64,000 nucleotides of DNA from Rhodospirillaceae bacterium (GTDB lineage: Bacteria; Pseudomonadota; Alphaproteobacteria; CACIAM-22H2): positions 17,253 through 81,252 of the forward strand of contig JAIXXA010000132.1 of NCBI GenBank assembly GCA_027490975.1. Reading direction: 5' to 3'. Every line of letters begins with the position of its first letter. The stretch's first letter is position 1. Below the pieces are notes generated by a model. The model saw only the letters and a program-made list of their open reading frames with translations. It was not told where the DNA came from and ran no database searches. The translations under genes and the position numbers were made by a program. Below are positions 55,494 to 63,967 of the stretch, in pieces.

Positions 55494-56291
55494 ATGGAAC
55501 AAAGCATTCTGAAACGTCCGGGCGCGGACCTGCACTATTGGAGCTTCGGATCGGGACCGGCTCTCGTTTTTGCGCACGGGCTCGGGGGCAACGCACTGTC
55601 CTGGTGGCAGCAGATCCCATACTTCCAGCGCAGATGGCGCTGCATCACGTTTTCGCATCGCGGCTTCGCACCTTCGACGGTAGCAAGCGGCCTGCCTGAT
55701 CCCGCCGATTACGCGGGCGACCTTGCGGCCCTGGTCGACCATCTCGGTCTCGGCGATGTGGCGATCGTCGCCCAATCGATGGGCGGCTGGGGTGCGGTCG
55801 AATTCGCGCTGCAGGCGCCGAAGCGCGTGCGCGCGATCGTGCTGGCCGCCACGAGCGGAACGTTCGACGCGCGTGCGGCCGATCCAAAGGCTTTTGCGGC
55901 ATGGGAGGTTTGGGCCGCCGCCGAACGCCTGCGCCTCAACGCCGCTTCGATCCATCCGGCGGCAGGCGAAGCCATGGCCCGGGATCGGCCCGACCTCAAA
56001 TTCCTCTACAGCAGCATCGACGCGATGTCGCAGGGGCTCGACAAAGAAGCCCTGCGCAAGCGCCTGTTTGCCGCCCGCGTGCGCCCGCTTGGCGATGCCG
56101 CGCGTTTGCCCATGCCCGTGCTCGTCGCGTGCGGGGAAAAGGACCCGGTCTTCGCCTCGCCCCTGGGGGCTGCGTTTGCTGCCGCTTTCCCGCAAGGCCG
56201 GCATATTGAATTTGCAAAAGCCGGGCATTCGGCCTATTTCGAAATCGCGCCCGAATTCAATCGCCGGATAGAGGCTTTCCTCGCCCCATGA
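55494..56291 (+). CDS. Alpha/beta-fold hydrolase
   Basis: 265 aa. HGLGGN oxyanion region, nucleophile elbow AQSMGG, C-terminal GHSAY (His). Confidence 0.85.
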   Translation: MEQSILKRPGADLHYWSFGSGPALVFAHGLGGNALSWWQQIPYFQRRWRCITFSHRGFAPSTVASGLPDPADYAGDLAALVDHLGLGDVAIVAQSMGGWGAVEFALQAPKRVRAIVLAATSGTFDARAADPKAFAAWEVWAAAERLRLNAASIHPAAGEAMARDRPDLKFLYSSIDAMSQGLDKEALRKRLFAARVRPLGDAARLPMPVLVACGEKDPVFASPLGAAFAAAFPQGRHIEFAKAGHSAYFEIAPEFNRRIEAFLAP

Positions 56292-56989
56292 AAGCGCCGA
56301 TCTTCTACAGCAAACCGGTCCCGCTCGCGGCCGAAATCCACGGCACCAAGCGCTTTCGCGCGATCGCCGATTTCCGCTTCGCGCGCGCGGCCAACGCGGT
56401 TCCGCTTGGGGCCAGCGAAATGGGGATTGCAGCGCGCCACTATCCGCTCGTCTTCGCTGCAACCGAGCCCGGCGGCATTGCCGCGATCCTGGGCGTGCAG
56501 ACGGGCGAAAACCTTTTCGTCGATGCCGACGGCAAATGGGCGCCGGACGTCTACGTACCGGCTTTCGTGCGCCGCTATCCGTTCGCCTTCGCCGAGCAGG
56601 ACGACAAACTGATCTTGTGCATCGACGAAGCGGCGAACGCGCTCGACGACGCAGAAGGGCCGTGGCTGTTCAACGTCGACGGGACCACGACCGGGTTCAC
56701 CGACCAGGTCGTGCAGTTCAACCGCGAATTCCAGATCCAAGCGCGAAGTGCCGCCGAATTTGCGGCTGCCGCCGCCGCCGCGGGCTTGCTCGCCGAAAAC
56801 CGAGCGGAGATCGAAACCCGCAGCGGCAAAAAGATGACGCTCGGCGGGTTCCGCGTGATCGACCGCGCCAAATTCGAAGCGCTGTCCGACGAAACCTTCC
56901 TCGATTGGCGCAAGCGCGGCTGGCTCGACATGGCGGCAGCGCACTTCCTGTCGTTCCATTCCTGGCAGAATCTGATCGCGCGCGCCTGA
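56288..56989 (+). CDS. SapC-family protein
   Basis: 233 aa with ATGA overlap with the hydrolase. NAVPLGASEMGIAARHYPLVF...YVPAFVRRYPFAF matches the SapC family (PF07277). Confidence 0.7.
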   Translation: MKAPIFYSKPVPLAAEIHGTKRFRAIADFRFARAANAVPLGASEMGIAARHYPLVFAATEPGGIAAILGVQTGENLFVDADGKWAPDVYVPAFVRRYPFAFAEQDDKLILCIDEAANALDDAEGPWLFNVDGTTTGFTDQVVQFNREFQIQARSAAEFAAAAAAAGLLAENRAEIETRSGKKMTLGGFRVIDRAKFEALSDETFLDWRKRGWLDMAAAHFLSFHSWQNLIARA

Positions 56990-56992
56990 CGT

Positions 56993-58951
56993 TTACTTCT
57001 CGGCCATGGCGAAGACTTCGCCTGTCTCGCCTTCGCGCAGGCGCTCGAGATGGTATTCGGCAAGCGCATCGTCGGGATAGCGCCGGCACAGATCCTCGAA
57101 CGCCGCGAGTGCTGCCGGATCCGCGCTTTTCATGAGTTCGAACGCGGCCAGATAGAGCGTCGTGTTTTCGTCTGCGGCACGTGCACCGGTCAGCGGTTCG
57201 AACACGTGGATGGGTTCGGACTTGCCTTTGACAATCACGCCGCCGACCTTACGGCAGGGAACTTCGGGCGAGGCGTCGCGCGTCTGCTGCGTGATCAGGA
57301 TGCGCGTGCCGAAATACTTGTTGAGACCTTCGAGGCGGGCGGCCGTGTTCACGGCGTCGCCGAGCGCTTTGTATTCGTAGCGGTCGAGCGAGCCGAAATT
57401 GCCCACGTTCGCTTCGGCCGTGTGCACGCCGATGCGCGTCACGCCGAAATCGACGCCCTTGGCGCGCTCTTCGGCGCGGAAGCGTTCGGAGAACCGGTCG
57501 ATGTCGAGTGCAGCCTGCAAAGCGCGCTTGGCGTGGTCGGGCTGCTCGCGCGGCGCGTTGAACATCGCGTAGATCGCGTCGCCCGTGAATTGGTTGATGG
57601 TGCCGCCGAACTTCCAGATCTCGCGGCAGCCGCCGTCGAGATAGCGGTTCAGGATATCGGCAAGGTGTGCGGCTTCGAGCTTTTCGGACAGGGTCGTGAA
57701 ACCCTGCACGTCGGTGAAGATCAGCGACATCGGCCGGCGGCTTGCCGACAGGTCGAGCTTTTTGGGATCCTTGACGATCTCCTGCAGCAGTTCGCCCGAC
57801 ACGTATTTGCTGAAAACGCCTTGGATGAATTTCTTCTGCTGGCGTTCTGCGCGACCCGACCACGCATCCGACAGCCAAAGCGCAATGCCCAAGGCCACCA
57901 CCGGCTCGATCAGCGGCAGCAGCAGTTGCCTGTCGCGGAACAGATAGAAGGCGCCGACCCACAGCGCGGCGATCGCGACGACGGCCCCGCTCGCGCGCAG
58001 CCAGATCGGCACGCCCGTATTGCCGAGCGCTGCCCCGATCAAGGCGAGCAGCGCCAAGGTCGTAACGAGCGGAACCAGCGCCCGATCCTCGGGCGCAACA
58101 CGGCCCTCGAGCAGCTGGGCCAGAATATGCGCCTGGATCACGATCCCGGCGATGGTGCCCTCCCGCCCTTCGCGGGCGACCGCAAACGGCGTGCGATGGC
58201 GGTCGGTCAGCGACAGATCGGCCCCCAGCAGCACGATCTTGCCGGCGATCCAAGCGTCGGGCAGCACAGGCACGGCATGCGAGGGGAAAATGCGGAAGGA
58301 CGGCGTCTGCGCATCGGGCTGGCCGCGCCACGCGATGATGCGCCGCGTTTCGGGAATCGCCGCCCCAAGCCGCTCGGCAAGGCGCGCGGCGACGTTGGGC
58401 AGGCGCGTGCCGTCGTGGCCTTGGCGCGGCTGGGGCACAAAACGGATCGTGCCGTCGCGAATGTCGGGCTCGATGTCGGCGAGGCCCCGCCATTCGGGCA
58501 CCACGAATTCGTCGAGATAGGCGCGCTGCTCCTCGGTCACGTAGAGCGGGGAGTCGCTGTAGCTGATCGCAAACGGAATCTTGAGGGCGGCCAGGACCGC
58601 GCGCAGTTCGTCGTCTTTGTCTTCTTCGGTTTCCTGGTCGAGCAGCACGTCGAGCAGCAGGGCTTTGGCACCTTTGGCAGCCAGCGCTTCGATCGTCTTC
58701 GCCAGAAACCGACGGTCGATCGGCGAGCGGTACGGAAACGAAGACAGCGTTTCTTCGTTGATGGCGGCCACGACGATGTCGGGATGCTGTGGCTCGGGTG
58801 CCGTCACGGTCGCGATGCGGTAGTCGGTCGTCCAGCGTTCGGCCGTGCCCACGAACGGAAACAGCCGGAAGATACCGAACGCGACCGTCGCGGCCACAAC
58901 CGCAATCGCAACCGAAATGCCGATGCGGCGAAAAACGAGTGCGGCACTCAT
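56993..58951 (-). CDS. CHASE2-sensor class III adenylate/guanylate cyclase
   Basis: N-terminal TM, periplasmic CHASE2-like domain of about 300 aa, three TM helices, then CHD cyclase domain (SLIFTDVQGFTTL...KFGGTINQFTGDAIYAMF...NTAARLE). Start at MSAALVFRR (58951); an alternative ATG lies at 58978. Confidence 0.85.
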   Translation of the reverse strand: MSAALVFRRIGISVAIAVVAATVAFGIFRLFPFVGTAERWTTDYRIATVTAPEPQHPDIVVAAINEETLSSFPYRSPIDRRFLAKTIEALAAKGAKALLLDVLLDQETEEDKDDELRAVLAALKIPFAISYSDSPLYVTEEQRAYLDEFVVPEWRGLADIEPDIRDGTIRFVPQPRQGHDGTRLPNVAARLAERLGAAIPETRRIIAWRGQPDAQTPSFRIFPSHAVPVLPDAWIAGKIVLLGADLSLTDRHRTPFAVAREGREGTIAGIVIQAHILAQLLEGRVAPEDRALVPLVTTLALLALIGAALGNTGVPIWLRASGAVVAIAALWVGAFYLFRDRQLLLPLIEPVVALGIALWLSDAWSGRAERQQKKFIQGVFSKYVSGELLQEIVKDPKKLDLSASRRPMSLIFTDVQGFTTLSEKLEAAHLADILNRYLDGGCREIWKFGGTINQFTGDAIYAMFNAPREQPDHAKRALQAALDIDRFSERFRAEERAKGVDFGVTRIGVHTAEANVGNFGSLDRYEYKALGDAVNTAARLEGLNKYFGTRILITQQTRDASPEVPCRKVGGVIVKGKSEPIHVFEPLTGARAADENTTLYLAAFELMKSADPAALAAFEDLCRRYPDDALAEYHLERLREGETGEVFAMAEK

Positions 58952-58967: not shown

Positions 58968-59684
58968 TCACGGAGCAACGGCGCGCGCCAGCGCGCGCGC
59001 TTGGTCGTTGCAGCCCTTTTCGATCATCCAAGCCGCCTGGAGCAGCGGATCGCTGAAGCTTGCAGGCATGCGGTGGATGACGACGTTGGCCGCATTGCCG
59101 CCGACGTCGAACACGTAGCCGCGCCCGTCGGCAAGCGGGATGCGTGCGGGCAGGGCAAATCGGTCGCTTTCGGCCGGCCACTGGCCGCGCGCACGCCAGC
59201 TGCGGTCGGCCGGTTCGATCGCGAGCCCCGTCGCCTCGGCAAAACGCGGCCCCCACAGCACGGGCGTCGCGTCGCCCGCAATGCAGCGCGCACCCGAGCG
59301 GCTCACATCGAGCACCCACGGATCGGGCAGTTCGGCCGCGTCGCCGCCCGCGCGCACGACACCGAGTGCGGCCGTGCCGGCGACGCGCTGGTTCATCAGA
59401 TTCTTGAGCGCGTCGCCGACATTGGCGCCGCCCGCCGCCGCCTGCCCCGGGGCGGGCGCTTCTTCGTAAGGGCCGCGCAGCTTCAAAGAGCGCCCGTCGG
59501 CCGCAATCAGCGTAAGGCGCTGGCCGGCGGCAAGCACCAGCACTTTGGTGCCGTCGACCTTGGCGCCGGGGGCAAGTTCGATGCCCCTGGCTTCGACCAC
59601 GACAAGCTCGTTCGCCGTCGCCGCCCCGGCGAGGCCGACGAAAAGCGCGATGGCGGTACAAAACGATCGGGCAAAACGACGCAT
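58968..59684 (-). CDS. Hypothetical periplasmic protein (signal peptide; possibly FecR-like partner of the CHASE2/CHAT module)
   Basis: Start MRRFARSFCTAIALFVGLAGAATA at 59684. The remainder of the 360-aa track ORF is an artefact. Sits between the CHAT and CHASE2-cyclase genes with 10- and 16-nt gaps. Confidence 0.6.
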   Translation of the reverse strand: MRRFARSFCTAIALFVGLAGAATANELVVVEARGIELAPGAKVDGTKVLVLAAGQRLTLIAADGRSLKLRGPYEEAPAPGQAAAGGANVGDALKNLMNQRVAGTAALGVVRAGGDAAELPDPWVLDVSRSGARCIAGDATPVLWGPRFAEATGLAIEPADRSWRARGQWPAESDRFALPARIPLADGRGYVFDVGGNAANVVIHRMPASFSDPLLQAAWMIEKGCNDQARALARAVAP

Positions 59685-59694
59685 AACTGCGAGT

Positions 59695-62600
59695 TTAGCT
59701 TGGATTGCGTGCAGCCGGCAATGGTTCGGCGCTGCGGGCCGCCGCACCGTCGCCCTGAAGCACGAATGCGCCCCAGAAGAACGGATGGGCGCTGGCGGCC
59801 TCGTCGGCCAGCGCCATCTGCGATGCCGCAAGGGCGCGCGCAATGCCGCCGCGCGTATTGCCGCCGAGCCGGTCGAACATGCCCGTGGTGAGCTGCACGG
59901 TCTGCTGCGAGGGCACTTGCCAGTGCGTGACCAGAAGGCCGCGGGCCCCTGCAAAGAAAAACGCTTCCGCCAAACCCGACAGCGATTCGCCGCCAAGCCG
60001 CGCGCCCGAGGCCGCCGTGTTGCAGGCCGAGAGCACGACGAGATCTGCATCCAGGCGCATCGCGGCGATCTCGCTTGCTTCGAGGAGCCCGTCTTCGGCC
60101 GGGTCGGCCACGTCGGCGGCTTGTGCGCTCAGGGCAAGGCCCGGCTGCGCTTGGCAGCGCAATTCGCCGGGCAGCAGCCCGTGCGTGGCGAAATACAGAA
60201 CGCGATAACGCTCGAGCTGCTGGCGGCGCAGATTGGCGGCCGTGGCATTCGCACCCAGCAGCAGCGCGTCTGGCCCGGCATTGAGCGAAGCCGCCACGCG
60301 GCGCACCTCGTCGGCGGTTTCCGGCAAGGGGGCAAGCGCGCGGATCATCGCTGCGGGCACGGCGCCGTCCGAGCGGCACGCGTCGGCAAGCGCACCGAGC
60401 CCGTTGGCAGCGCCGCCGCCTTGCGGTGCGCCGCCAAAATTCGGATTGGCGAGCGCAAAAAACGGCTCGGGGGCGGCCGGGCGAGCCGCCAGCGTGCGAA
60501 GGTTTAGGAAGGCGCGCACGCTCGGCGGGCTTGCGGTCGCAACGCGGCGCGCCAGCCACGCCGTCTGCCGGTAATCGCCCGCCACTGCCGCCTGCGGCGG
60601 CGCTTGCGTCGCCAAGACGGCAAAAGGCAGGCTCGCAAGTGCGCCATTGGCGACGACGAACAATTGATCGACTTCCGCCAGCGCCGCATCGAACGGCCCC
60701 AGCAAAGTGCGGTAAAGCCGGTGCGACAGCGCCACGTCGAACGGGGCCACGTCGCTGCGGCCGCTGATCTCGAAGGCGGCGCGCAGGATGCGCACCTGGT
60801 CGGCGAGCTGCTCTTCGTCGGCCGCCAAGCGAGCGGCCTGGATCCCGTCGCGGCGCACGAGGAATGCAAACGCGCCGTCGGGCCCGGTCAAATAGAAGAC
60901 GAGCGCCTCGCGCGGTCCCAAGGCGGCGCGCAGTTCGTCCGGCGCGACAGGCTGCGGCGAGACGAGGCGCGAGAAGCCGGGGGCGGCAGATTCAATATCG
61001 GCTTCGAGTGCGGCGGCTTTCGCCGTCGCGGCGTTGAGGTCGTCGCGCAGCTTGGCCACGCGTGCGGCATCGCGCAGCGCCGTCGGCTTGCCGAGCTCGC
61101 CGGCAAGATCGAGGCCCAGACGGTCGCGGCTGCGCAGCGCGTCTTCGTGCGCGCCCACGACGGGCGCCAGACGCGCATCGTCGCGCGCGAGGCGCTGGGC
61201 GGTGCGCGCAACGGCGCGCCCGGCCGTGCCGTCGCGCATCAATTGGGCGACCGCGAACATTTCGGCATGCAAGGCCGCGGCTGCCGCCGGATCGCGCTTG
61301 GCTTGCGCATCGGCCGCCTCGAGGAACGGGCGCACTTGAGCGAAGGTCAGCGTGCGCACCGGCACTTGCGCGAGCACGATGCGGAACGCATCGCGGTAGT
61401 TCTCGATCGCGGCTGCATAGCGCCCGTCGCCGCTTTGCTCGCGCGCGAGCGTCATCAGGCTTTGCGCGACCGGCCAGCCGCCGCCGAACACGCGCAAGGT
61501 CTGCTGCGCCGAGGCCGCCAGCAGGCGCTCGGCATTGACGAAATCGCCGCGCGCACCGAGCACTTGCCCGAGCTGCGACAAGGCGCGCGGCTGCCACCAG
61601 GGCGGCAGGCCCGGAATGCTGTCGATGATGCGGCGCGCTTCGAGGGCGGCGGACTCGGCCCCCGCAAGATCGCCGGTTTCGAGCGCCATCGACGAGGCGA
61701 AAAGAAGTGCGTGCGCGAGTTCGGCCTGCAGCACCACGGCGCTGCCGAAAATCGAGCCGCCGCCGCCGGCATCGAGGCTCGCCGGGATGCCGCCGCCCAG
61801 CGTTTCGATCAAGGCGCGCCGCCGCTGGATCGTGTCGCGCGCACTCGCAAGGGCCCGCTCGTACTGGCGCTGGTTGGCGGCATGCAGCGCGAGAAAGGTC
61901 TGCAGGCGCGGATATTCGCCGGGGTCGGGCGAGCGCAAGATCAGCGCTTCGGCACGCTGGAACAACGCATCGGCCTCCTCGAACCGGCCTTGCGCCGATA
62001 CTTCGAGCGCAAGCGAGCCCATCGTCGTCCCCGTGCCCGGATGGTCGGGGCCGAGTGCCGCCGTCTGCAGAGCGAGCGAGCGCCGATAGGCAGCCTCGGC
62101 CCCCGCATTGTTGCCGACGCTGTTGTAGAGCCGCGCAAGCTCGACAAGATCCTGATAGCCGCCGACCGCATCGCCGCTTGCGACCGCCGCGCCGAACGTC
62201 GCCTCGAGATGGCCGCGCAGCGCCGCGACGTCGAACGGCCCCGGTGCGGCATCCCCCAACGACAGGCGCATCGCTTCGACCAAAGCCGGCAAGGCGGCAG
62301 GCTGGCCCTCGGCGACCGCCAGGCGATTGCCCGATACGATCGCCGCCGCAACAAGCGGCCAGCCGCCGTCTTTGAGCGAACAGGCGGCGACCATCAACGT
62401 CGTGTCCGCGCCGACCCATTCGGGCGACTTGCACGCCGCACGCAAGCCGAGCGTGCGGATCGGCGCGCTCGTCTCGAACCCGCGCGTCAGAAACGCCCGG
62501 CGCGCATCGGGCTCTTGCGGCACGTTGCGCAATTCCGCCAGAGCCTGCGCCGAGCCGTAGACGCGCGGGCTGTTGGCGCAGAAAACTTCGCGCAGGTCGG

Positions 62601-62748
62601 GCTGCAGGCGGTTGGGCACTGCCCGGCACGCTTCGCCCGACAAGGCCGTGCCGACCGGCGTTTCGGGGCCTTGCCCCCCGCGCATCGCTTGGCAACCGGC
62701 CAAGGCGGCCGCGAGCACGCAGACCGCGATTTGCGGAAAGAGCCTCAT
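59695..62748 (-). CDS. TPR-repeat CHAT-domain (caspase-like peptidase) lipoprotein
   Basis: Start MRLFPQIAVCVLAAALAGCQ (lipobox LAGC) at 62748. TPR region. C-terminal CHAT domain with His (YFATHG) and Cys (LVVLSACNTAASG) catalytic dyad. Confidence 0.85.
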   Translation of the reverse strand: MRLFPQIAVCVLAAALAGCQAMRGGQGPETPVGTALSGEACRAVPNRLQPDLREVFCANSPRVYGSAQALAELRNVPQEPDARRAFLTRGFETSAPIRTLGLRAACKSPEWVGADTTLMVAACSLKDGGWPLVAAAIVSGNRLAVAEGQPAALPALVEAMRLSLGDAAPGPFDVAALRGHLEATFGAAVASGDAVGGYQDLVELARLYNSVGNNAGAEAAYRRSLALQTAALGPDHPGTGTTMGSLALEVSAQGRFEEADALFQRAEALILRSPDPGEYPRLQTFLALHAANQRQYERALASARDTIQRRRALIETLGGGIPASLDAGGGGSIFGSAVVLQAELAHALLFASSMALETGDLAGAESAALEARRIIDSIPGLPPWWQPRALSQLGQVLGARGDFVNAERLLAASAQQTLRVFGGGWPVAQSLMTLAREQSGDGRYAAAIENYRDAFRIVLAQVPVRTLTFAQVRPFLEAADAQAKRDPAAAAALHAEMFAVAQLMRDGTAGRAVARTAQRLARDDARLAPVVGAHEDALRSRDRLGLDLAGELGKPTALRDAARVAKLRDDLNAATAKAAALEADIESAAPGFSRLVSPQPVAPDELRAALGPREALVFYLTGPDGAFAFLVRRDGIQAARLAADEEQLADQVRILRAAFEISGRSDVAPFDVALSHRLYRTLLGPFDAALAEVDQLFVVANGALASLPFAVLATQAPPQAAVAGDYRQTAWLARRVATASPPSVRAFLNLRTLAARPAAPEPFFALANPNFGGAPQGGGAANGLGALADACRSDGAVPAAMIRALAPLPETADEVRRVAASLNAGPDALLLGANATAANLRRQQLERYRVLYFATHGLLPGELRCQAQPGLALSAQAADVADPAEDGLLEASEIAAMRLDADLVVLSACNTAASGARLGGESLSGLAEAFFFAGARGLLVTHWQVPSQQTVQLTTGMFDRLGGNTRGGIARALAASQMALADEAASAHPFFWGAFVLQGDGAAARSAEPLPAARNPS

Positions 62749-63260
62749 GCGCCGGGAGCCGGCGGCAGGCGCCGGCGCGTGTAGTCGCACAGCATGTTCA
62801 TGAGCGCCTTCATCATCGAATCCTTGAGACCGTACGATTCGACCACGTGCGGCGGCGGCAGCATCATGCGCGCATGCCGGTCGGCGGACGTTTCGTCGAG
62901 CGGCAAACCGGCCTTGGTGCGCGAATCGAACGGCACGGTCGAGCGGCAATACTCCATGAGCGACGTCATCAAGCGCACGATATCGGGCTCAAGCGACATC
63001 ATGCGCTGGGTGAGCTGCTGGCTGTTGACGACGATGCAGACCGTGTCTTCGCCCGCGACCGCCGTCGCCATGCGCAGGCCGCCGTCGATGATCGCCATTT
63101 CGCCGAACAAGGCGCCCGGCCCCAGGCTTGCCACGATGATCGGCGCATCCACCCCTTTTTTGAGGATAAGGACTTTGCCCTTTTCGACCAAAAAAGCTTC
63201 GGCGCCGATTTCGCCTTCCTTGAAGATGATTTTTGCCTTGGCGTAGGTGCGTTTGAACAT
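62745..63260 (-). CDS. Standalone cyclic-nucleotide-binding (cNMP/CAP-effector) domain protein
   Basis: 171 aa. Phosphate-binding cassette FGEMAIIDGGLRMATAVA. No HTH. Stop overlaps the CHAT start (ATGA). Confidence 0.8.
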   Translation of the reverse strand: MFKRTYAKAKIIFKEGEIGAEAFLVEKGKVLILKKGVDAPIIVASLGPGALFGEMAIIDGGLRMATAVAGEDTVCIVVNSQQLTQRMMSLEPDIVRLMTSLMEYCRSTVPFDSRTKAGLPLDETSADRHARMMLPPPHVVESYGLKDSMMKALMNMLCDYTRRRLPPAPGA

Positions 63261-63265
63261 GGCGG

Positions 63266-63967
63266 CTAGAAGTCGCCCTTGCGGATCTGGAACACGTCGG
63301 GATTCTGCGGATCGCGAATGTACGAAACTTGCAGCGTCGGCGGCACGGTCGGGCGCTGGCCTTCGGGGGCTGCCACGCCGGCGAGGGCCGCGATCGTTCG
63401 CCGGCCTTGCGTGTCGTCGCCGCGGAAGACCAGCACGGCCCCGTCGGGCTGGGCCAAATTGACCGCGACCGTGTCGGCTTTGTAGCCCACGGAAACGAGA
63501 TGGGTCTGCAGCATGCGCGCCAGATCGACGGCCGTGGCAGGCGCGAGCTGCGGATTGGCGGCCCCGCCGAAGGTGACGGTCACCTGCACAAGCTGGCGCG
63601 AGCGGAAGCCAATGACGTAGGCGACCTGCGCGGGGCCGCTGCCGGGCAGCAGGTCGGGCACGGTGATCGCCAGAATCTGCGTGCGCTCGACCCCGTTTTC
63701 GACGGTCTCGATCCGGTCGGCGGGAATCGAAAAATCGCGCCGAATGGCTTGGCGCACCTGGTCCGGCGTCATGCCGAACAAGGCCGAGCGGAAGCCGGTC
63801 AGGCGAAATTCAGGCTCGGCCGCGGCGGGTGTTCCCGTCGCAGGCGGCGTTGCCGGGCGATTGGGTGCGGGGGCCTGCGCAAGAACGGCGCCGGCACCAA
63901 ACGCCAGCCCGCAAAACGCGACCAAAACGCCGACAATGGCGCGGATACGCTGAATTTTTCTTCCCAT
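63266..63967 (-). CDS. Hypothetical secreted protein
   Basis: 233 aa. Signal peptide MGRKIQRIRAIVGVLVAFCGLAFGAGAVLA and Pro/Ala/Thr-rich linker. First gene of the minus-strand cluster, 5 nt upstream of the cNMP-binding gene. Confidence 0.6.
   Translation of the reverse strand: MGRKIQRIRAIVGVLVAFCGLAFGAGAVLAQAPAPNRPATPPATGTPAAAEPEFRLTGFRSALFGMTPDQVRQAIRRDFSIPADRIETVENGVERTQILAITVPDLLPGSGPAQVAYVIGFRSRQLVQVTVTFGGAANPQLAPATAVDLARMLQTHLVSVGYKADTVAVNLAQPDGAVLVFRGDDTQGRRTIAALAGVAAPEGQRPTVPPTLQVSYIRDPQNPDVFQIRKGDF

Follow-up and report, generated by a model that had tools for sequence, protein, structure and literature searches.

A stand-alone cyclic nucleotide-binding protein with a conserved C-terminal tail encoded in a CHASE2 cyclase operon of Rhodospirillales

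A stretch of 64,000 nucleotides (nt) from the genome of a Rhodospirillaceae bacterium (GenBank assembly GCA_027490975.1, contig JAIXXA010000132.1, positions 17,253 to 81,252 of the forward strand), hereafter called the window, encodes on its minus strand a protein of 171 amino acids (aa), which consists of a cyclic nucleotide-binding (CNB) domain and a C-terminal tail. We find that the gene of this CNB protein is located in an operon that also encodes a class III nucleotidyl cyclase with a CHASE2 sensor domain, that the CNB domain is complete, and that the tail seems to be confined to a small protein family which we define here. Of the roles that such a protein might play, we lean, by a modest margin of belief, towards that of a dedicated cytoplasmic receptor for the cyclic nucleoside monophosphate (cNMP) made by the operon's cyclase, in which the tail would be an output module acting on a cytoplasmic target.

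The CNB domain

The open reading frame (ORF) starts with an ATG at 63260-63258 and ends with a TGA at 62747-62745. A search of 5.8 billion protein clusters returned 23 full-length close relatives of 169-172 aa with 61-98% identity, which are annotated in their sources as 'CRP-like cAMP-binding protein' (cAMP, cyclic AMP), 'cyclic nucleotide-binding domain-containing protein' or 'CRP/FNR family'. Codon comparison with 14 orthologues gave ratios of nonsynonymous to synonymous substitution rates (dN/dS) of 0.10-0.34 for residues 1-107 and of 0.11-0.67 for tail residues 108-167. Because of these homologues and dN/dS values, the ORF is to be regarded as a real gene and not as a chance ORF of GC-rich DNA. 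Its product has no signal peptide and, by inspection of the sequence, no membrane-spanning hydrophobic segment. The proteins that came next in the first homology search (P0025-P0029, 203-206 aa) have the CNB domain alone in common with it and are found in an unrelated context, and they were set aside.

Residues 4-87 match the Pfam family cNMP_binding (PF00027) over profile positions 2-86, with E=1e-17 and 64.3 bits against a gathering cut-off of 27.5; with three residues before this match, the N-terminal alphaA/N3A helices are absent. NCBIfam gave sub-threshold, domain-level matches alone (Pat, CRP and similar models), and no DNA-binding or enzymatic domain was found in the 171 aa by Pfam, NCBIfam or PADLOC, in agreement with a preliminary description of the window, which had been drawn up without database searches and had seen here a stand-alone cNMP-binding protein lacking either kind of domain. 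Among the sequences in the PDB, the best phmmer matches are CNB-A and CNB-B of PKG I (E=4e-18). The alignment with PKG I CNB-A reaches residue ~113, and those with the CNB domains of Bd1971, PKA-R, CRP and MlotiK1 reach residues ~95-105. AlphaFold was run with a 21-sequence alignment, and its best model (predicted local distance difference test, pLDDT, 85; predicted template modelling score, pTM, 0.73) places the strands within residues 2-79, alphaB at residues 80-88 and alphaC at residues 92-107. When the full-length model was compared with the PDB by Foldseek, CNB domains were the sole matches, those of PKG, PKA and CRP included, and the superposition on solved CNB domains had a root mean square deviation (rmsd) of 1.7-2.3 Å.

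The phosphate-binding cassette contains F52-G53-E54-M55-A56...R63-M64-A65-T66, in which G53-E54 and R63-x-A65-T66 are what we take to be the ribose 2'-OH and phosphate contacts, respectively, of canonical CNB domains. In the alignments of close and of distant relatives, F52-G53-E54...R63-x-A65 is invariant wherever the sequence is complete, and T66 is Thr in most relatives and Ser, His or Lys in a few. Taken together, these comparisons show a complete CNB domain with the predicted canonical ribose and phosphate contacts, by which it belongs to the CAP_ED superfamily, and the protein almost certainly binds a cyclic nucleotide.

The C-terminal tail and the family it defines

The preliminary description had regarded the C-terminal 80 aa as an uncharacterised extension, and had also considered that this part might simply be a helix of a Crp-like fold. 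Each of these views holds for one portion of the region: its first third, up to residue 107, is predicted to form the alphaB/alphaC hinge/lid of the CNB fold, whereas the remaining 64 aa (residues 108-171) belong to no such helix and match no known family. The Foldseek comparison that had been suggested for the C-terminal part gave no assignment of the tail, as residues ~1-107 superpose on the CNB domain of Bd1971 and the tail is left without a match in the PDB.

In the full-length AlphaFold model the tail forms helices at residues 125-133, 137-143 and 148-164, and the identical three helices were predicted for the tail alone, without the CNB domain (pLDDT 79). With this tail-only model, Foldseek found nothing in the PDB at E<=1 (the single match has E=8.8) and had a best E of 1.5 in BFVD. 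Pfam returned zero families at E<=10, helix-turn-helix (HTH) families included, for residues 108-171 as well as for residues 81-171, and a profile of 19 tails searched against all PDB sequences gave a best, and meaningless, E of 0.6. The tail, with an isoelectric point of ~9, is nevertheless conserved: 24 of its 67 aligned columns are invariant in the close family, and R106, T108, P110, R114, D127, Y160, R164, P166 and P167 are invariant in the distant members as well, which are 25-41% identical to the window protein. Two motifs mark the distant members, namely Y-x-R-x-T-x-P-[FYWL]-x-x-R just past alphaC, and Y-T-x-R-R-L-P-P at the terminus.

Furthermore, a profile of residues 105-171 was searched at full HMMER sensitivity against 1.84 billion representative proteins, which yielded 14 proteins at E<=0.001. 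Of these, the three long matches P0037, P0042 and P0044 are repetitive proteins matched in many short stretches, and were discarded; about 10 clusters besides the window protein are real matches. In every full-length match the tail lies C-terminal to a CNB domain and starts at residue ~103-151, the real matches that are not full-length are fragments of 24-124 aa which cover the tail, and in this search the tail was found on no domain other than CNB. We define these proteins here as an unnamed family with a 'YTRRRLPP' tail, for which the window protein is the seed: a CNB domain of ~105 aa is followed by the tail motifs, in the form Y-x-R-x-T-x-P-[FYWL]-x-x-R ... D ... Y-x-x-x-R-L-P-P at the C-terminus, in proteins of 165-220 aa. 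As judged from these searches, the tail is a conserved module specific to this small CNB family, is under purifying selection and matches none of the known families searched; because of this selection and of its invariant columns, it could be an interaction surface.

Outside this family, many other stand-alone CNB proteins (P0064-P0135) are encoded in Rhodospirillales and their relatives. Tail-less ones of 110-125 aa are common among the relatives (e.g. the 'cAMP-binding protein' of Magnetospirillum), and a second stand-alone group, with 190-207 aa, is marked by another conserved tail (...NLRNVHEIYMKRPRS...); CNB-REC and CNB-GGDEF fusions occur too.

Conserved gene order and homologous operons

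The genomic context was scanned in one genome per species, for 185,579 species, with the neighbouring genes located by tblastn. The CNB protein was found in 18 genomes, all of them metagenome-assembled Rhodospirillales, which are labelled mostly as Tagaea, and otherwise as Telmatospirillum, Azospirillum, Asaia or unclassified. In all loci of sufficient length the order is the same: a divergent gene for a POTRA_2/ShlB (TpsB-type) protein, and then the genes for a protein of ~230 aa (here g1), the CNB protein, a TPR-CHAT protein, a protein of ~235 aa (here g4) and the CHASE2 cyclase. The window stops 33 nt past g1, and the TpsB gene lies outside it. While g1 is seen in Tagaea-type loci only, its position is held by a large TpsA-like protein in other lineages. 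The CNB protein is thus fixed in the CHASE2 cyclase operon in these 18 genomes. The features of the window are listed in Table 1.

Table 1. Features of the CNB gene, its product and its operon, in coordinates of the window
Feature	Position	Strand	Basis
CNB gene, 171-aa stand-alone CNB protein with tail	62745..63260, stop included	minus	ORF list, Pfam PF00027, 23 full-length orthologues
Predicted eight-stranded beta-barrel of the CNB domain, residues 1-79	63024..63260	minus	AlphaFold, Foldseek against Bd1971, Pfam
Phosphate-binding cassette FGEMAIIDGGLRMATA	63060..63107	minus	Translation; kept in close and distant relatives
Predicted alphaB and alphaC hinge/lid helices, residues 80-107, SQQLTQRMMSLEPDIVRLMTSLMEYCRS	62940..63023	minus	Translation, PKG CNB-A alignment, AlphaFold
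Family-specific tail, residues 108-171, 64 aa	62748..62939	minus	AlphaFold; Pfam, PDB, Foldseek, hhalign and profile searches
C-terminal motif YTRRRLPP	62760..62783	minus	Translation, distant-relative alignment
ATGA overlap of CNB TGA and CHAT ATG (62748-62746)	62745..62748	minus	Sequence
g1, first operon gene, 233-aa secreted protein, no Pfam family	63266..63967	minus	Precedes the CNB gene in each of the 18 genome loci
TPR-CHAT lipoprotein, 1017 aa, starts MRLFPQIAVCVLAAALAGCQ	59695..62748	minus	Pfam CHAT E=2e-52, TPR_12 E=2e-20
CHAT lipobox LAGC, residues 16-19	62692-62703	minus	Motif coordinates
CHAT catalytic His (YFATHG) and Cys (LSACNT) motifs	60016-60033 and 60178-60195	minus	Motif coordinates
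g4, 238-aa secreted protein, unnamed family	58968..59684	minus	Always between the CHAT and CHASE2 cyclase genes
CHASE2-class III nucleotidyl cyclase, 661 aa	56993..58978	minus	Pfam CHASE2 E=1.6e-26, Guanylate_cyc E=5e-14
Substrate-specifying residues Gln463 (GGTINQFTGD), Lys537 (RYEYKALGD)	57578-57607, 57356-57382	minus	CHASE2 cyclase

Tail-bearing members of the family on longer contigs were collected by a profile search with a broadened alignment, and their surroundings differ from those of the close family. In locus L030 (P0047, 45% identity), the tail-bearing CNB gene follows DUF6065 and SapC genes and lies 1.7 kb from a divergently oriented CHAT-g4-CHASE2-cyclase operon on the opposite strand. 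In loci L032-L034 (P0048 and P0050, 36-37% identity), it is located 200-240 bp upstream of a gene for a small Guanylate_cyc+FHA cyclase with the canonical Lys/Asp pair, and in locus L031 (P0057, 36% identity) it lies 3.4 kb from the gene of a 1362-aa Guanylate_cyc+AAA_16 protein; no CHAT gene was called within the 8-18 kb retrieved for L031-L034. The recurrent neighbour of tail-bearing CNB genes is hence a class III cyclase, and not CHAT. In addition, locus L032 (1-3081, 9001-10649) has a second CNB protein of 137 aa and a large Peptidase_C14 (caspase-family) protein nearby; the combination of a caspase-like protease with a nearby cyclase (here Guanylate_cyc+FHA) and CNB protein is thus not limited to the CHAT operon.

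On the other hand, homologous operons were found in which the place of the tail-bearing protein is taken by something else. By tblastn against plasmids and chromids, the cultured Niveispirillum cyanobacteriorum TH16 was found to encode a CHASE2 cyclase with 49% identity, in a locus (L035, 2-14387) which comprises genes for a filamentous-haemagglutinin-like protein of >2754 aa, a CHAT lipoprotein, g4, the CHASE2 cyclase and a stand-alone CNB protein of 148 aa. The latter (Pfam E=3e-18) has 38% identity over residues 1-98, and its tail is different, shorter and without YTRRRLPP. Two further loci contain distant members of the g4 family. In locus L039 (1-14220) the order is ShlB/TpsB, a TpsA with a TPS domain, a 432-aa protein, CHAT, g4, the CHASE2 cyclase and, directly after the cyclase, an MscS-CNB channel (Pfam cNMP_binding E=2e-21). 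Locus L037 (1-13387) encodes a 4463-aa protein of unassigned family, CHAT, g4, the CHASE2 cyclase and a secreted 208-aa protein, and no CNB protein. In Campylobacterota, a CHASE2 adenylate cyclase has been described as clustered with a cAMP phosphodiesterase, a protein with a FecR domain and a TPR protein (PMC9239204); in the literature searched there was nothing specific on the operon described here, on the association of CNB and CHAT, or on the tail. Judging from gene content, the block of CHAT lipoprotein, g4 and CHASE2 cyclase is widespread and linked to two-partner secretion, and the cytoplasmic accessory gene beside it may be viewed as an exchangeable 'effector slot', which is usually filled by a cNMP-binding or cNMP-degrading protein.

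Operon products and their predicted compartments

The products of g1 (MGRKIQRIRAIVGVLVAFCGLAFGAGAVLAQA...) and g4 (MRRFARSFCTAIALFVGLAGAATA...) both have a signal peptide, and neither matched any Pfam, NCBIfam or PADLOC family; the stop of g1 lies 5 nt before the CNB start. About 78 homologue clusters make up the g4 family, all annotated as 'hypothetical' and none with a Pfam domain. It was considered that g4 might be a FecR protein, an idea taken from the FecR and CHASE2 clusters of Burkholderia and Campylobacterota; since Pfam was empty at E<=10 and none of the 78 clusters has a Pfam domain, this is not claimed. In the CHAT protein, a lipobox of the form [LVA]-[ASG]-[GA]-C is present in all 19 loci examined, and because the caspase-type His and Cys are kept and a lipoprotein signal is present, the TPR-CHAT protein is likely to be an active, envelope-anchored protease. 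The start codon of the CHASE2 cyclase is ambiguous (TTG 58978 or ATG 58951). CHASE2 is an extracytoplasmic sensor domain, g1, CHAT and g4 have signal peptides or a lipobox, and the CNB protein has no signal peptide; the CNB protein and the catalytic domain of the cyclase would therefore be the only cytoplasmic parts of the system. Among periplasmic TPR-CHAT sensors, the anti-sigma factor DdvA is the sole characterised precedent (PMC11506125).

A SapC-family gene (PF07277, E=3e-58; 56288-56989, plus strand) converges on the cyclase gene in the window, and for 11 of the 18 related genomes the flanking sequence retrieved, which extended to at most 10 kb, also contains SapC. The DUF6065, SapC and tail-bearing CNB genes of L030 (7409-9591) form one co-directional block beside the CHAT operon, which suggests that SapC may be functionally part of the system.

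Proposed role and alternatives

The strongest argument for a receptor of the operon's own cyclase product is that related operons vary the effector slot. In the mechanism that we propose, the secreted 233-aa protein, the TPR-CHAT lipoprotein, the secreted 238-aa protein and the CHASE2 sensor, together with TpsB, would constitute an envelope sensing module with control over the cyclase, and this class III cyclase, encoded three genes downstream of the CNB gene, would make the cyclic nucleotide that is the presumed ligand. Binding of the nucleotide in the cassette would move the alphaB/alphaC hinge, as in PKA-R, Epac, CRP and Bd1971, and the shift would reposition the three-helix tail, which would then engage or release a cytoplasmic target. 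No recognisable cytoplasmic partner is encoded in the operon. The most economical candidates for the target are the cyclase's own cytoplasmic part, in the sense of a feedback, and a conserved housekeeping protein, the latter in view of the persistence of YTRRRLPP in different contexts. A CRP-type receptor of Sinorhizobium meliloti is reported to complex with the cyclase CyaC (PMC10463352).

Several points weigh against this proposal. Of the five AlphaFold models, a single one reaches a confident pLDDT (85; the other four, 56-67), so the predicted structure is used with caution, and the N-terminal helices which relay allostery in PKA and Epac are absent from the CNB protein. A receptor gene near a cyclase gene would fit any receptor role, passive buffering included. 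Two distant relatives, P0032 and P0043, show no cyclase, on contigs of just 1.8 and 5 kb. Moreover, the nucleotide made by the cyclase is uncertain, because a Gln/Lys pair replaces Lys/Thr at the substrate-specifying positions: the best relative in the PDB is CyaB of P. aeruginosa (E=4e-30), and the adenylyl cyclases CyaB and CyaC, the closest solved relatives, carry Lys and Thr at these positions. All 18 orthologous loci and L030 keep the Gln/Lys pair; among the homologous CHASE2 cyclases, that of Niveispirillum has Lys/Thr, that on pSymB of S. meliloti has Lys/Ser, and that of L037 has Thr at the second position.

The main rival, which we consider possible and yet clearly less probable than a receptor with an output, is that the protein is a passive buffer or a feedback element, which sequesters the nucleotide as a 'sponge' or binds back to the cyclase, with the tail as a lid or a dimerisation bundle. 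None of the searches found an output domain, the CNB gene is co-transcribed with the cyclase gene, the tail-less CNB proteins mentioned above are common among the relatives, and the other, shorter tail in Niveispirillum implies that the tail is dispensable for operon membership. Rv1636 of M. tuberculosis is reportedly an abundant cAMP binder without an output. However, a lid would not need 64 residues with an invariant terminal YTRRRLPP that is kept at 25-41% identity and in varied contexts, and the helices of the tail are predicted likewise in the absence of the CNB domain.

A bolder version of the proposed receptor role, which we hold to be doubtful, is a complete trans-envelope pathway: a periplasmic TPR-CHAT protease linked to two-partner secretion would control a CHASE2 cyclase which, with Gln463/Lys537 exchanged for Lys/Thr in this clade, makes a nucleotide other than cAMP, the CNB domain would be tuned to this nucleotide, and the YTRRRLPP tail would be a new output domain acting on a conserved target.

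It is improbable that the protein is a miniature CRP-like transcription factor whose C-terminal helices are a degenerate HTH, despite several features that recall one. Homologues carry the label 'CRP/FNR family' in the sources, Foldseek alignments to full-length CRPs span 170-200 columns, the segment VESYGLKDSMMKALMNML looks like the HTH of CRP by eye, the pI of the tail is high, and there is no other regulator in the operon. When the tail profile was compared by hhalign with an alignment of five CRP-family DNA-binding domains, the same register was picked, but with a probability of 0.08%. In addition, the long CRP alignments have an rmsd of 10-17 Å, the structure and Pfam searches of the tail described above are empty for HTH folds as for others, no wing is seen, and hydrophobic residues (M, M, L, M, M, L, C, Y) make up most of the putative recognition helix. 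AlphaC is predicted to have 16 residues (92-107), and that of E. coli CRP has roughly 26.

Still less credit can be given to a docking of the tail on the TPR region of the CHAT protease, with the ATGA ensuring 1:1 production. The preliminary description had seen in the C-terminal half a partner module, with the CHAT TPR region among its possible partners, and in the overlap of the two genes a sign of stoichiometric co-expression. The overlap itself is present in the window, and the genes are adjacent; TPR arrays are peptide-binding modules, for which the terminal RRLPP could be a linear motif. Yet the distance from the CNB stop to the likeliest CHAT start is -4 nt in only five of 19 loci (the window, L005, L007, L008 and L009), and it is -1 nt in two, 0 nt in two and +2 to +17 nt in the remainder, so that the 4-nt overlap is not a conserved stoichiometry device. 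What is conserved is the tight linkage, and hence co-transcription, of the two genes, probably with some translational coupling. Because of the topology, such co-expression does not imply a physical association: a lipoprotein signal is found on CHAT throughout the 19 loci, whereas the CNB protein lacks a signal peptide, and since the two would be in different compartments, a periplasmic CHAT/TPR protein is an unlikely partner. Furthermore, the tail-bearing CNB gene of L030 lies outside the CHAT operon, L031-L034 have no called CHAT gene, and the CNB genes of Niveispirillum and L039 follow the cyclase gene and are not beside CHAT. Of the partner-module idea, the conservation of the tail stands, and the CHAT partner does not.

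Just as remote is a Pycsar-like anti-phage pair, in which the CNB protein would be an effector that kills or arrests the cell: PADLOC models of PycC match the cyclase domain (best 82.9 bits), PycTIR and other effector models match the CNB domain (E=7e-7 to 7e-5), and the substrate-specifying residues of the cyclase are non-standard, but these matches are limited to the shared domains (CNB residues 6-100 on model positions 42-135 of ~300), neither a TIR domain by Pfam nor a transmembrane module for killing is present in the CNB protein, the cyclase is of the CHASE2 receptor type with the adenylyl cyclase CyaB as its closest solved relative, and the six-gene locus is syntenic across the clade among housekeeping-type neighbours and not in a defence island.

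Comparison with known systems

The best structural match of the protein is the N-terminal CNB domain of Bd1971 from Bdellovibrio (PDB 6hq2-6hq7, which include cAMP-bound and cGMP-bound forms), with an rmsd of 1.7-1.9 Å over 103-107 columns, 36-38% identity and a sequence E of ~1e-13. Like the window protein, this domain has almost no N-terminal helical extension; however, in Bd1971 it regulates an EAL phosphodiesterase to which it is fused, whereas the window domain is followed only by the helical tail. The CRP/FNR regulators also have a CNB domain and then alphaC in common with the window protein, and differ from it in their winged helix-turn-helix. With the CNB domains of PKA-R, PKG and Epac, the fold and the cassette are common, and the hinge/lid helix mechanism is general; those proteins have N3A helices, tandem domains and kinase or guanine nucleotide exchange factor partners, while the window protein is single-domain and without N3A. 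Pycsar systems likewise encode a class III-type cyclase and a CNB protein together, and show weak PADLOC matches here, whereas the window locus has no toxic module and differs, with its six genes, from a compact cyclase-effector pair in a variable defence context.

In functional terms, the nearest analogue is Clr, the receptor downstream of the CHASE2 cyclases CyaD1, CyaD2 and CyaK in S. meliloti (PMC13001267), which occupies the same logical position; the window CNB protein is encoded inside the cyclase operon, and Clr elsewhere. NsrA, an outer-membrane protein that partners the CHASE2 cyclases of S. meliloti, was considered as an analogue of TpsB; it is described as a protein of ~1200 aa with a beta-barrel at 600-1200 (PMC7529298), not a TpsB, and no equivalence is claimed.

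The MscS-CNB channel of L039 and the 148-aa CNB protein of Niveispirillum belong to the same operon type and have the same presumed receptor role, although their genes come after the cyclase gene and not before CHAT as in the window, and their outputs are a channel or another tail. MscS-CNB fusions are bacterial cyclic-nucleotide-gated channels. What would be new in the window is the combination of a stand-alone CNB protein and an output or lid module not classified before, in an uncharacterised operon that leads from the envelope to a cNMP.

Conclusions

Taken by itself, the CNB protein departs modestly from a very common domain type, and the gain would be incremental unless the target of the tail or the ligand is unusual. 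Nevertheless, a small protein family is defined here whose conserved C-terminal module is new. CHASE2 sensing and the onward signalling from CHASE2 cyclases are largely unexplored, the best studied cases being CyaD1, CyaD2 and CyaK of S. meliloti, which signal via Clr. The locus described here would represent a different wiring of CHASE2, in which a receptor without a DNA-binding domain is encoded inside the cyclase operon. The effector slot, which is filled by a CNB protein with the YTRRRLPP tail, a CNB protein with another tail, an MscS-CNB channel or a phosphodiesterase, may offer a handle on the output of a widespread module that consists of TpsB/TpsA, a TPR-CHAT lipoprotein, a secreted protein of ~235 aa and a CHASE2 cyclase. 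Together with the Gln/Lys pair of the cyclase, this slot would make the operon a reasonable experimental entry into CHASE2 signalling.

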